From: a virus
Taxonomy: Duplodnaviria > Caudoviricetes
Virus record (IMG/VR): IMGVR_UViG_3300032050_000002
Strand: one strand, 5' to 3'
DNA: 64,000 nucleotides
Below are positions 5,964 to 11,058 of the stretch, piece after piece. The notes beneath the pieces are model-generated. The model saw nothing but the letters and a program-made list of their open reading frames with translations. It did no database searches and was not told the origin of the DNA. The translations under genes were made by a program, and so were the position numbers. How positions within the stretch are numbered: the first letter of the stretch is position 1; each line of letters begins with the position of its first letter.

Positions 5964-6350
5964 TGGTGGAGATATTGGGAGTCGAACCCAAGTGCTAAAC
6001 ATCCCAAGTATTAAGGACTACATGCTTAGGATAAAGTTTTCTAACTTTCCAAAAATAGTTAATTCGTTCTTCACCATCGTAAATTAACAACCAATGAATG
6101 ACTCGATTTAGGGTTCAGTCATTTTTCCACCTCTATTTAGACTCCTGTTTCTAGGTTATATGTCCACCGACCCAATTGTGTGACTTAATCTAATTAAGCC
6201 ACAGCTACTTCTTCAGTACGAATTAATCCTACAGAAGTAAGTTTGTTGATTACGTTGCCGTATATCGATTTGAATCAGTTTTAACAAGGTTAACTCAGCC
6301 TTGACATGCCCCGAATAGTTGATTATGCTAGTCGATACCATTTTATCCCC
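5964..6350 (-). ncRNA. ssrA: tmRNA (transfer-messenger RNA), 387 nt; tag ORF 6259-6194 encodes GNVINKLTSVGLIRTEEVAVA*
   Basis: 5' GGGGATA pairs with 3' TATCTCC-ACCA (G3:U Ala identity); T-arm GGGTTCGACTCCC; 5' TGGTATCGAC motif; tag ends in small hydrophobic residues. Confidence 0.95.
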
Positions 6351-6375
6351 ATAATGTTAAAGAACTTTCTGAATA

Positions 6376-6406
6376 CAAATATACAACAAAAACTTGAAAT
6401 AACAAA
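6376..6406 (-). promoter_or_regulatory. Bacteroidota-type promoter for tmRNA
   Basis: Minus strand TTTG (6406-6403)-N19-TATATTTG (6383-6376), ~25 nt upstream of the mature 5' end. Confidence 0.8.
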
Positions 6407-6433
6407 TTTTTAAGATATTTATTTCATATAAAT

Positions 6434-7555
6434 ATGTCCAATAGATTGCAAAATAACAAAATAAGACGGATTTTTGAGTCTGACGAGCCTCAAACAACCT
6501 ATCAAAAACTATTAAAAATCGCTCAAAGTACGGAAGACCCTAATATTACCTTTGATGAGGAGATTGTTTTTAATTTTACATACAATCAAAGAACACCTAG
6601 AAAAAGTATGATTACTTTAAACTTTGATACTGATGAAGATTATTTCCAACTATTCTATGAAACTGAAGACAATCCAAAATATATGGAAAGAATTATTAAT
6701 GATAGGAGATATTATGATAGGTTTGAATTTGAATCTTCAGATTATATTTGGGAAGATTGGAAAGAAGGATATATACTTATGGATTTTAATGATGAAAATA
6801 TTTTAAAACTTAAAGATATTTTACTAATGGTAAATCCTGAATTGGCGGATTTTAATCCTAATCTAGATGACAAATCCTCATCAATCGCGAGATTTTTACA
6901 CAACACATTTGAGCGTGAAATTGATTATATTTTAGATGAACGTTGGCAATTAGTTAATGATTGTAAAGTACAATCGGAACAGAACAATATTAAAAAAGAT
7001 ATGTGTGATAGGTTATTTAACTATGGTATTTTTAGTAAGGGGGATTGTTTTGAAACTTACGTAACATCAGTTAATATTTTAATATCTTTATACGAAGAAA
7101 CCAAAAATTTTGACGTAGATTTATATGAAATGTTAAAACAAGTGGCAATTAATACACAAGCCCCTGATTATTACGAATATTATTATGAAACAAGTTGTGA
7201 TAATTGGGAGGAAGTTTCCACGGCATTTAATCAAGAGATTTCAAAAAGACTCGATGAAATTTTGGACAGAATTGAAAATAGTGACGAATTTAATTTTAAT
7301 AGAGATTTATTTAAACTGTATAGTAAAGAAGTTTACAATAACTACCAAATTAATAGATGGTATGAATTACCATATAACAAAGAATATTCATTTCGTTTAG
7401 TGAGAGTTGAACCAGCAAACGATAGAATTGTTTTATTTTTTCAAAAACCTAATAGTCAACAAGAAAAAAGAAGTTATAATTTAGAAGGTTTTATTGACTT
7501 TTTACATAATCCGGAACTTTTTGAAAATAAAATTAGGAAAATAAGAAAAATCTAA
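6434..7555 (+). CDS. Hypothetical protein (acidic, aromatic-rich)
   Basis: 373-aa ORF; ATATTTAT at 6415-6422; no recognisable motif. Confidence 0.7.
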   Translation: MSNRLQNNKIRRIFESDEPQTTYQKLLKIAQSTEDPNITFDEEIVFNFTYNQRTPRKSMITLNFDTDEDYFQLFYETEDNPKYMERIINDRRYYDRFEFESSDYIWEDWKEGYILMDFNDENILKLKDILLMVNPELADFNPNLDDKSSSIARFLHNTFEREIDYILDERWQLVNDCKVQSEQNNIKKDMCDRLFNYGIFSKGDCFETYVTSVNILISLYEETKNFDVDLYEMLKQVAINTQAPDYYEYYYETSCDNWEEVSTAFNQEISKRLDEILDRIENSDEFNFNRDLFKLYSKEVYNNYQINRWYELPYNKEYSFRLVRVEPANDRIVLFFQKPNSQQEKRSYNLEGFIDFLHNPELFENKIRKIRKI

Positions 7556-8390: not shown

Positions 8391-8417
8391 AAAAAAGGGA
8401 GATTATTCTCCCTTTTT
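8391..8417. terminator. Bidirectional terminator overlapping the clpC 3' end
   Basis: aaaaaagggaga-tta-ttctcccttttt. Confidence 0.75.
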
Positions 8418-10439
8418 CTTTTTAGTCTTCTTTTGTTTTCTTTCTTTTATCTTAATGTCCTTTTCTTCGACATATAATTCATACTCCACATTATCCTCAA
8501 TGTTTCCCTTTAACACTTCCTCAGAAATGTAATCTTCAATCTTATCTTGGATTGCTCTCTTTAGTGGTCTCGCTCCGTACATCTCATCAAAACCAACCTC
8601 AGAAATTAAATTGATAATTGATGGGTCGTATACAAATTTATATTTTAATGTTTCTAATCTATTAAATAATTTATCCAATTCTATTTTAACAATCTTATCA
8701 ATATCTTCTTTAACTAATTTGTTAAATATGATAATCTCATCAACTCTATTTAAAAACTCAGGAGCGAAAAACTTCTGCAATTCTTTTTTAAGAATATCTC
8801 GTTTGTGTTCTTCTTCAACATAGGTGGATGATTTTGATTTAAATCCAACACCAGAACCAAACTCTTGTAATTTCTTAACACCTAAATTTGATGTCATAAT
8901 GATTACACAATTCTTAAAATTAATTTTTCTACCTAATCCATCAGTAATATGACCATCATCTAAAACTTGTAAAAGGGTTGAGAATATATCTTTGTTTGCT
9001 TTCTCAATTTCATCAAATAAGATAACTGAGTATGGTTTATTTTTAACTTGTTCTGTTAATTGACCGCCTTCATCATAACCAACGTAACCCGGAGGTGCCC
9101 CAATTAATCTTGATATTGTGTGTTTCTCTTGGAACTCAGACATATCAACTCTGATTAAATTATCTTCACTTCCAAATATTTCTTTAGCCAATTGTTTTGC
9201 TAAATATGTTTTACCAACACCTGTCGAACCTAAGAAGATAAATGAACCGATTGGTTTATTTGGGTCTTTAATTCCTAATCTATTTCTTCTAATTGATTTA
9301 ACAATTTTATTTACCGCTTCATTTTGACCAACAACTTTACTATTAATAACTTCAGCAAGATTTGTTAAAGTTTTGGTTTCATCAGAGTTTATTTTAGATA
9401 AAGGTATCTTTGTCATATTAGATACTACTTCATATACTAAATCCTCAGTTACTTCTTTCTTTTTAATTTGTAATTCAGTTTCAAATTTCTTCTTTTCTGA
9501 TTCTAACTTATCAAGAATCTTTCTTTCTTTATCTCTTAGTGATGCCGCCAATTCATAATTTTGTTGTTTAACCACATCAAGTTTTTCTTTCTTAACATCC
9601 AAAGCATCTTGTTTTAGTTTTTCAATAACTTCTGGCATTTTAATCTCAACCTGACTTCTTGCCCCAACCTCATCAATAATATCAAACGCTTTATCAGGAA
9701 ATTCTCTATCCGTAATATATCTTTCCGCCATATCAACACATAATTTTAGAATCTCACTTGAATAGATTACGTTATGATAACTTTCATATTTTTCTTTAGC
9801 ATTTTCTAATATCTGTAACGTCTCTTGTTTTGTCGCCGCGTCAACAATAACTTTTTGGAATCTTCTTTCTAAAGCACCATCTTTTTCAAAGTTTTTACGA
9901 TACTCATCTAAGGTCGTAGCACCAATACATTGTATTTCTCCTCTCGCTAATGCGGGTTTAAATATGTTAGACGCATCAAGAGAACCTGAAGAATTACCCG
10001 CTCCAACGATTGTATGAATTTCATCAATAAAAACAATAATGTTAGGGTTAGATTGAAGTTCTTCAATTATAACTTTCATCCTTTCTTCAAATTGTCCTCG
10101 GTATTTTGTTCCCGCAACAACAGAAGTCATATCAAGTAATACAATCTTTTTATCCATTAAGTTTCTTGGACATTCCCCATTGAATATCTTTATAGCCAAT
10201 CCTTCAACAATTGCGGTTTTACCACAACCAGGTTCACCAATAATAATAGGGTTATTTTTCTTTCTTCTTGAAAGAATTTGAGCAATCCTTGAGATTTCTC
10301 TATCTCTACCGATTACAGGGTCTAACTTACCTTCCTCGGCAAGTTTAATTAAATTTCTACTGAAGTTATCAAGAACCGGAGTATTTGATTGGTCTTCCGA
10401 TTTATTCTTTTTTCCTCCACTGTCTGCTGATTCAATCAT
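8403..10439 (-). CDS. clpC: ClpC-type Hsp100 AAA+ unfoldase lacking the N-terminal Clp_N domain
   Basis: Two AAA modules ([14 protein letters not shown]; [15 protein letters not shown]), UVR-type middle domain [11 protein letters not shown]; starts directly at LDNFSRNL. Confidence 0.92.
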
Positions 10440-10608
10440 AGTTAGTTGTTTTTAAAAAATATATGAAATTTATTTTAATATTCAACTATTGATATAATGT
10501 CATAAATAAAAAACAATACTGACAATTTGTCACAAATATTTACAAAGAATATATTTTGGTACATATTTAGATATGGGTGAAAAAAATAAACAAAAAAATA
10601 AAAACAAA

Positions 10609-11058
10609 ATGAAAAATTTTAATTACTTTAAAAATTTTGATGAATTAATGAGAGAACTTTTAAATGAGTCGATTAACTACGAATTCCCTTCTAAGTATTT
10701 TGCGGGTAAAACAAAAACTGAAAAAGGAACTGATGAAAATGGTGAATGGGTACAAACAACTTACGTATCTCCTGACGGAAGTTATTCTTACACTAACTTT
10801 GTTAGAGTTGGTAACTCCACTAAAAAAACAGAATCAAAAACAAATTCTAAAACAACTGAATTACAAAAACAATTAAGTAAAGCTGTAGAGGAACAAAACT
10901 ACGAAGAGGCGGTTAAATTAAGAGATAAAATTAGAAAAATTGAAGGTCATAAAGAAAAAATTGATTCTTTAAGGTCTGAGTTAGATTTAGCGGTTAAAAA
11001 CCAAGATTACGAAAAAGCAATCGAATTAAGAGATGAGATTAAAAAATTAGAAAAATAA
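10609..11058 (+). CDS. Protein with two UvrB/UvrC (UVR) coiled-coil motifs; McsA-like putative Clp adaptor
   Basis: LSKAVEEQNYEEAVKLRDKI and LDLAVKNQDYEKAIELRDEI; divergent from clpC; start may alternatively be 10573. Confidence 0.8.
   Translation: MKNFNYFKNFDELMRELLNESINYEFPSKYFAGKTKTEKGTDENGEWVQTTYVSPDGSYSYTNFVRVGNSTKKTESKTNSKTTELQKQLSKAVEEQNYEEAVKLRDKIRKIEGHKEKIDSLRSELDLAVKNQDYEKAIELRDEIKKLEK

Follow-up and report, generated by a model that had tools for sequence, protein, structure and literature searches.

A natural N-domain-less ClpC coupled to tmRNA in freshwater jumbo phages, with a double-UVR protein as an optional neighbour

What is a phage doing with a ClpC unfoldase that lacks the N-terminal domain, encoded close to a transfer-messenger RNA (tmRNA), a peptidase and a small protein carrying two UVR motifs? 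The question is raised by positions 5,964–11,058 of the IMG/VR virus record IMGVR_UViG_3300032050_000002 (Duplodnaviria; Caudoviricetes), a stretch of 64,000 nucleotides hereafter referred to as the window. An initial annotation, made from the sequence alone, had described the locus as a proteostasis island, and had proposed that the double-UVR protein is a dedicated activator or adaptor binding the M-domains of ClpC. All the features it listed were found in the window; it had omitted that the tmRNA lies on the minus strand, and that a conserved 373-residue reading frame (6434–7555) stands between the tmRNA and the peptidase gene. As described below, the locus is a conserved module in a large family of freshwater T4-like jumbo phages of Bacteroidota, while the double-UVR protein is clearly an optional accessory, which may act on the ClpC M-domains.

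A conserved module in freshwater jumbo phages

The block formed by the tmRNA, the 373-residue orphan, the peptidase and the N-domain-less ClpC is kept in hundreds of freshwater jumbo-phage contigs, and relatives of the phage ClpC are encoded on ∼450 IMG/VR stretches. The orphan and peptidase genes lie between the tmRNA and ClpC in nearly all relatives, and the tmRNA is found 2–4 kb from ClpC, on the same strand, in nine of eleven related loci. The window itself derives from a large phage, as it encodes a large terminase (17996–19759) and a T4-type portal protein (21875–23701), both past the locus; a GOLLD RNA and a tRNA-Met lie upstream of it. Its G+C content is 25–35%, and the public DNA runs that hold the window stretch are lake and freshwater metagenomes. 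A nucleotide search with the whole locus against GenBank phages returned no match, an exact search of IMG/VR with a 50-mer from the UVR gene likewise gave none, and PADLOC gave generic AAA matches for ClpC only, and none for the other genes of the locus. Both tmRNAs and Clp-type ATPases are already known from phages, and UVR domains are likewise known. No description was found, in the papers and phage records searched, of a natural and widespread N-domain-less ClpC, of a tmRNA and a lid-less peptidase in fixed association with it, or of a phage-only double-UVR family accompanying ClpC. The features of the locus are as follows.

5935–5957, no strand: two-way terminator-like hairpin, just past the tmRNA 3' end
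5964–6350, minus strand: tmRNA (ssrA), full length with a CCA end (Rfam RF00023)
6194–6259, minus strand: tmRNA tag reading frame, 21 codons and a stop, with the resume codon aligned to the Rfam consensus
6434–7555, plus strand: orphan protein of 373 amino acids, conserved, adjoining the tmRNA
7569–8390, plus strand: M20-type (clan MH) metallopeptidase of 273 amino acids, without the lid domain (Pfam, PHROG)
8392–8417, no strand: terminator-like hairpin between the convergent peptidase and ClpC genes
8403–10439, minus strand: N-domain-less ClpC of 678 amino acids, comprising a linker remnant, D1, a UVR-type M-domain, D2 and D2-small
8841–8858, minus strand: ClpP-docking loop G-S-G-V-G-F, ClpC residues 528–533, aligned to the S. 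aureus ClpC loop
9423–9638, minus strand: ClpC M-domain coiled coil, with its tip at nucleotides 9531–9566 and Tyr295 at the S. aureus Phe436 position
10490–10532, no strand: two operator-like palindromes, 40–80 nucleotides before the UVR gene
10573–11058, plus strand: double-UVR protein of 161 amino acids, with two UVR motifs (Pfam)
11065–11090, plus strand: terminator-like hairpin right after the UVR gene
11114–11356, plus strand: KTSC-domain protein of 80 amino acids, the right-hand slot neighbour in all relatives

The tmRNA matches RF00023 over the full length of the model (5964–6350, minus strand; 92.4 bits, gathering score 47), and possesses both a tRNA-like domain with a CCA end and a tag reading frame, encoding 21 residues of the form G-N-V ... 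E-E-V-A-V-A. ARAGORN did not call it. SmpB was found in four of five large relatives, and adjoins the module in locus L009. This phage-borne trans-translation kit resembles the tmRNA and SmpB genes of huge phages; unlike in those, the tmRNA is here physically coupled to the ClpC module, and its 21-residue tag ends in VAVA. Exact contigs co-extensive with the tmRNA are present in four freshwater metatranscriptome runs (for example 5968–6338, with 0 mismatches), and in one metatranscriptome run two exact contigs fall within the UVR gene. As DNA carry-over is possible, these contigs are weak evidence for transcription of the tmRNA and the UVR gene in nature. The RNA contigs end near the tmRNA borders, as expected of a stable processed RNA, and position 6085 is a C instead of a T in two metatranscriptome runs, which probably reflects strain variants. 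No RNA contig covered ClpC at high identity, a gap in contig cover that is uninformative on expression.

The assignment of the gene at 7569–8390 (plus strand) to the M20/M28 peptidases holds, with Pfam matches to M20 (PF01546; 27.6 bits, cut-off 24.6) and M28 (21.2 bits), and a match to phrog_4191, annotated as a peptidase, at 7e-42. Its DDK, EE and H metal-ligand motifs align to those of peptidase T, in keeping with an M20 catalytic domain and its di-metal site (H, D, E-E, D/E, H). The inserted lid/dimerisation domain is missing: the aligned blocks 103–162 and 218–244 flank ∼160 extra residues in PepT. The neighbouring orphan has homologues at 25–36% identity in ∼75 related loci, always beside the tmRNA, and its AlphaFold2 (AF2) model is confident, with a predicted local distance difference test (pLDDT) value of 89.5. 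It has no Pfam, PHROG, NCBIfam or PADLOC match, and an Atlas feature search gave no usable match. Fold searches (Foldseek against the PDB, ESM Atlas, and VIA-wide) led to no assignment, with a best Z of 5.2 over 57 residues and a TM of 0.32.

The N-domain-less ClpC

The phage ClpC aligns end to end with residues 149–802 of S. aureus ClpC (E 5e-216), and with residues 145–805 of B. subtilis ClpC. It has no Clp_N match, in line with the initial annotation, and its start corresponds to the flexible linker that follows the N-domain. The AAA+ core is complete, with Pfam matches to AAA, AAA_lid_9, AAA_2 and ClpB_D2-small. The Walker A/B motifs of both modules (residues 68–75/136–142 and 404–411/473–481), the pore loops KYRG (112–115) and GYVGY (451–455) and the sensor-2 motif are all intact. 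A UVR-type M-domain is also retained, as had been proposed: it belongs to the short ClpC type, can be aligned gap-free with the M-domain of S. aureus ClpC, and scores 20.9 bits against Pfam UVR (cut-off 21.5) over residues 283–308. At its tip, Tyr295 occupies the position of S. aureus Phe436. I aligned 22 phage ClpCs, and found Tyr295, Arg302 and Asp303 to be invariant. The same is true of F527, G528, G530, G532 and F533 (F-G-x-G-x-G-F) in the ClpP-docking loop, whose G-V-G-F lies at residues 530–533. Two other identities were considered and rejected: ClpL (6lsy), which scores 509 bits against 722 bits for ClpC, the ClpP-docking loop being present in the phage protein; and ClpB/Hsp104, for which the ClpB matches are split around the M-domain and the NCBIfam ClpB model reaches 811 bits against a cut-off of 1232.

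The missing N-domain is a natural truncation, not an annotation slip. All ∼80 phage ClpC homologues that were fetched are 672–695 amino acids long, with the same linker start, and a longer frame is impossible in the window, because only 133 bp separate the gene from the divergent UVR gene. Domain checks on relatives were made on five large related contigs, two of which are complete 322-kb genomes; Clp_N, MecA (PF05389) and ClpS (PF02617) domains were found nowhere in them. Outside the family, the 642-kb uncultured phage LR756502 also encodes an N-domain-less ClpC, of 707 amino acids (L190, 2420–4543), with a VGF loop, a Tyr tip, a charged N-terminal tail and no UVR neighbour.

The closest cellular proteins are full-length ClpCs (841–851 amino acids) from Bacteroidota metagenome-assembled genomes (MAGs), with 56–58% identity, and a full-length ClpC is present in 200 of 201 sampled Bacteroidota genomes. 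From this comparison, it is most likely that the gene was captured from a Bacteroidota host, and that the N-domain was lost afterwards.

A closely similar protein has been engineered. When Jenne et al. (EMBO J 2025) truncated S. aureus ClpC at residue 147, removing its N-domain, the resulting enzyme had no resting state, bound ClpP, which the wild type does not, and showed raised ATPase activity (PMC12583610). It assembles head-to-head into ring dimers held by the M-domain tips, and into ClpC/ClpP rods, which are proteolytically inactive (PMC12583610). When the F436A mutation is added, the truncated enzyme degrades GFP-SsrA as well as MecA-activated wild type (PMC12583610), as it is the pore, rather than the N-domain, that recognises the SsrA tag. 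The engineered and phage proteins share a linker start (147 versus the aligned 149), D1, a UVR-type M-domain with an aromatic tip, D2 and the ClpP loop. Unlike the engineered one, the phage protein is natural and phage-encoded, is of probable Bacteroidota descent at ∼60% identity, carries Tyr and not Phe at the tip, and lies beside a tmRNA and a candidate tip binder. With the bacterial ClpCs that work with MecA or McsA/McsB, it shares the AAA+ core. In that known system gating occurs through M-domain contacts, and McsA possesses a UVR segment; the phage protein differs in lacking the N-domain, which MecA and phospho-arginine both need.

The proposal that the enzyme uses host ClpP is the natural reading of these data, with the docking itself putative. 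The docking loop is invariant, and no clpP was found in the window, as had been noted: a tblastn search with the ClpP of a related phage gave nothing. ClpP is also absent from the two complete 322-kb relatives, and was found in only three of 27 related records. Provided that the conserved loop is in use, most of these phages would therefore depend on the ClpP of the host. A ClpP-type peptidase is encoded in records G003 (L093, 1318–2040), G010 and G026, far from ClpC; it scores 237 bits against NCBIfam ClpP versus 63 bits for the head-maturation protease, and carries an N-terminal extension of ∼45 residues.

Alternatively, the phage ClpC may for the most part act independently of ClpP, as a disaggregase or assembly chaperone in its own right, in the manner of ClpL; this possibility is compatible with any of the roles for the UVR protein discussed below. 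Most of these phages lack ClpP, some relatives have an Hsp20 neighbour, and the ring dimers of the truncated S. aureus enzyme resemble ClpL (PMC12583610). ClpL is itself an Hsp100 without a canonical N-domain that forms ring dimers through aromatic M-domain tips, as the phage protein might by analogy. However, the G-x-G-F loop, invariant in the 22 phage ClpCs, is lacking in ClpL and ClpB; the phage protein keeps it and is nearer to ClpC in sequence, its best matches are to ClpC and not to ClpL or ClpB, and some relatives add their own ClpP. Judged on its conservation, the docking loop argues against ClpP-free work as the only role of this ClpC, and I consider it unlikely to be even the main one.

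The double-UVR protein, its slot and its regulation

The gene head-to-head with ClpC does encode two UVR motifs, as first described (Pfam UVR, PF02151; E 2e-20, 72 bits), and its AF2 model (pLDDT 69) shows a helix-turn-helix twice. The protein begins with a short helix rich in Phe and Asp, followed by a three-stranded sheet (residues 46–79) that carries an invariant W...S-P-D-G-S signature, and by a disordered linker. Three helices (residues 88–160) then make two UVR hairpins on one long shared central helix. The hairpin tips are N-Y (108–109) and D-Y (144–145), and in the model these two aromatic tips should lie at opposite ends of a rod. A fold search of the model against the PDB returned nothing below E 0.04, and matches to isolated hairpins only.

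The family comprises ∼100 clusters of 120–170 amino acids, and appears to be restricted to phages. Its clusters in the Atlas are viral throughout (100%), a search of 401 Bacteroidota genomes gave no full-length match, and an exhaustive profile search with the N-terminal part, against 1.84 billion representatives, found only this architecture. There is no match in 50,697 GenBank phage records, and the family is therefore not carried by any isolated phage. Several identities were tried and rejected: McsA (36.6 bits against a cut-off of 210, with the UVR segment alone aligned and no cysteine/zinc fingers), MecA or ClpS (no match to either domain), and a derivation of the N-terminal part from the Hsp20 found in the same slot (hhalign probability 0.2%).

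That slot, between ClpC and the KTSC gene, is variable, and holds the UVR gene, an Hsp20 gene, a gene for a 113-residue protein of no known family, genes for proteins with a capsid-cargo-type leader, or nothing. Hsp20, a small heat-shock protein, occupies the head-to-head position in L004 (4656–5015), L005 (4665–5033), L006 (4641–5015) and L089 (4466–4849), all on the minus strand. The co-occurrence of the UVR gene and ClpC, which the initial annotation had put forward as a check of the link between them, is one-way: in every genome seen to carry it, the UVR gene accompanies a phage ClpC, but most of the closest ClpC loci have no UVR gene. Where its flanks are readable, the UVR gene stands head-to-head with the N-domain-less ClpC in ∼15 lineages, with UVR protein identity down to 38%; the exceptions are G003 and G022.

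Upstream of the UVR gene lies an exact palindrome, TGACA-N3-TGTCA (10520–10532), with a degenerate copy, TGATA-N3-TGTCA (10490–10502), 30 bp upstream. I searched 190 loci for this palindrome, and found the exact form in 29, of which 27 have it directly before a UVR-family gene or the same-slot Hsp20 gene. Loci with the palindrome before UVR or Hsp20 genes include L002, L003, L009, L013, L060, L070, L073, L077, L094, L101, L103, L005 and L089, and it often occurs in two copies ∼30 bp apart. It accompanies the UVR gene even 50 kb from ClpC (L094), and is not present where the slot holds other genes. On its 3' side is a TGG(C/T)A(C/T)-N5-T.G.. element, which in L089 reads TGGTACAGATATTGCT and fits the sigma-54-type -24/-12 consensus. 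From these shared signals, the UVR and Hsp20 genes appear to be under one common regulator, which would tie the UVR gene to a proteostasis-type response. The UVR gene looks monocistronic, because a terminator-like hairpin follows it directly. A scan for sigma-70 promoters found no more sites than in shuffled sequence, as expected for a Bacteroidota system.

Similar signals were identified in four Bacteroidota MAGs (L104–L107), those with the full-length ClpCs most closely related to that of the phage, where the palindrome, or a variant with 1–2 mismatches, and TGGCATGA...GC are found before clpC. This composite (palindrome and TGGCAT-N-GC) lies 40–90 nucleotides before the clpC ATG, and occurs nowhere else in those genomes; it is absent from 29 further Bacteroidota clpC upstream regions. 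The possibility that the palindrome with a TGGCA-type promoter is a general Bacteroidota stress signal was rejected, as the strict pattern occurs in one of 151 genomes, equal to the reversed-pattern control, and this sole match precedes a membrane protein gene. The likeness between the phage and MAG signals is thus a lineage-restricted lead only.

What the double-UVR protein may act on

That a UVR domain may serve as a ClpC-docking module is supported indirectly, and by analogy, from an independent source. In Arabidopsis, trapping on CLPC1 enriches five UVR-domain proteins, three of which have a BFN-UVR architecture; a UVR domain is present in the adaptor CLPF as well (PMC8889267). Like CLPF, EXE1/2 and UVR2–4, the phage protein is small and has UVR as its only recognisable module; the plant proteins associate with a UVR-bearing ClpC (PMC8889267), an association that is putative for the phage protein. 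The plant proteins differ in combining one UVR with YccV, DUF151/BFN or other domains, whereas in the phage protein two UVR hairpins are combined with an N-terminal sheet of its own. Proteins of ∼195 amino acids with BFN/DUF151 and a C-terminal UVR are common in Bacteroidota (L185, L187, L189), and this is the architecture of the Arabidopsis UVR2–4 trapped on CLPC1.

The following mechanism can be proposed. Having no N-domain, the phage ClpC would be barred from the resting state that this domain stabilises, and deaf to N-domain adaptors and phospho-arginine. It would dock through its invariant VGF loop on ClpP, that of the host in most of these phages. By analogy with the engineered S. aureus enzyme, it may then pair head-to-head through the M-domain tips (Tyr295, Arg302, Asp303), which would block proteolysis. 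Breaking these tip contacts would make it a strong degrader of substrates recognised by the pore, for instance the chains that the phage would tag by means of its own tmRNA and SmpB, and the peptidase may recycle the released peptides. The UVR rod could dock on the M-domain tips by UVR-UVR pairing, as UvrB-UvrC and M-domains do, and either free the ring dimers, acting as an activator, or bridge ClpC to another UVR-bearing protein, acting as an adaptor. I regard an action of the UVR protein on the ClpC M-domains as a serious possibility that falls a little short of being probable.

Several observations weigh against this proposal. The UVR gene is present in only ∼20 of the 80 closest ClpC loci and in six of 27 large records, and is absent from the two complete 322-kb genomes, whose ClpC keeps the same M-domain tip. 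Without the UVR gene, the tip lock, if it exists, must be handled otherwise or need no release. In two genomes, the UVR gene lies at a distance from ClpC, by ∼50 kb (G003) and ∼30 kb (G022), and where the two genes do adjoin, an insertion hot spot may be the reason, in a phage family of high synteny. The behaviour expected of an N-domain-less ClpC is extrapolated from a Firmicute enzyme with Phe, not Tyr, at the tip. The UVR family profile also scores higher on the UVR tails of host BFN nucleases than on ClpC M-domains (17–23 bits); it matches such tails in 47 of 401 Bacteroidota genomes at E<=1e-8, with 36–45 bits. A complex prediction for ClpC (residues 1–350) and the UVR protein, both given as alignments, had a score of 0.12 (mark 0.32), and weighs neither way.

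The initial mechanism is therefore supported in part. The intact N-domain-less ClpC, the phage-only UVR neighbour and the literature fit it, but the dedicated role does not stand, given the ∼60 of 80 closest loci and the two complete genomes without a UVR gene, and the two genomes in which it is distant. As most relatives do without it, the UVR protein is no obligate activator. Its description as an optional, separately regulated accessory of the ClpC machine is one that I tentatively favour, at nearly even confidence. The suggested purposes, namely the removal of defence proteins or assistance to virion assembly, found no support, and the tmRNA and phage SmpB point instead to tagged products of stalled translation.

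A more far-reaching version, which I consider improbable as a whole, would see here a private tag-and-destroy pathway. In it, the phage would mark stalled chains with its specific 21-residue tag through its tmRNA and SmpB, the N-domain-less ClpC on host ClpP, unresponsive to host adaptors, would be unlocked by a bivalent UVR protein capping the tips and would selectively degrade the tagged chains, and the lid-less M20 peptidase would complete the degradation to amino acids, the position upstream of ClpC being an exchangeable adaptor slot for UVR, Hsp20 and other proteins. If true, the UVR hairpin would be a general ClpC-docking module, from phages to plastids.

The UVR protein might instead target the M-domain tip of the host ClpC, and lock or deregulate the host protease as a takeover factor. 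The Bacteroidota ClpC tip is nearly identical (Q-K-Y-E-E-A-A-Q-L-R-D), virtually all Bacteroidota have ClpC, and the UVR gene, which has promoter signals and a terminator to itself, can be located at a distance from the phage ClpC. There is also a precedent in Gp53 of phage SPO1, likewise a small phage protein proposed to steer the ClpC/ClpP protease (PMC6873191). Gp53 acts on a full-length host ClpC, SPO1 has no ClpC of its own, and the two phage proteins have no sequence relation. Host and phage M-domains are not distinguishable as the target, but the UVR gene is head-to-head with the phage ClpC in ∼15 lineages, and all genomes seen to carry it have a phage ClpC; a host target therefore seems quite unlikely to me.

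Nor do I expect, except at low probability, that the UVR protein targets other host UVR proteins independently of ClpC, competing for UVR-UVR contacts with UvrB/UvrC, and so blocking excision repair, or with the ∼195-residue BFN-UVR proteins. Such targets would agree with the better fit of its profile to BFN-UVR tails, with its NCBIfam matches, which are limited to the UVR segments of UvrB, UvrC and McsA, and with the definition of UVR domains by UvrB-UvrC pairing. However, no repair or nuclease gene is found in its context, the conserved neighbours being ClpC, or Hsp20 in the place of UVR with the same operator, and the plastid BFN(DUF151)-UVR proteins are themselves ClpC1 interactors (PMC8889267), which leads back to ClpC.

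It is finally improbable that there is no functional link, with the UVR gene an accessory in a hypervariable slot between divergent units and the M-domain likeness a generic UVR consensus: the slot does have other occupants or none, and high synteny makes adjacency weak evidence in a family where the UVR gene moves apart from ClpC in two genomes, but the domains of the UVR protein and of Hsp20 are both of proteostasis type, their genes have in common a specific palindrome not seen with the other occupants, and the UVR gene was never seen on a contig that should show ClpC yet lacks it.

How the N- and M-domains regulate ClpC is under active study, and this regulation is also a drug target. In these phages, evolution has arrived at the truncation that was engineered in 2025, and the abundant, so far unstudied natural enzyme has as its neighbours a tmRNA and a candidate ligand of the M-domain tip. 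Should the UVR protein not bind, the N-domain-less ClpC/tmRNA module is still a widespread, unstudied phage proteostasis kit. If it does bind the tip, a ClpC regulator acting through the M-domain alone would be known for the first time; the protein would also offer a mechanism for the unexplained enrichment of UVR proteins on plastid CLPC1, and would show how giant phages privatise host proteolysis.

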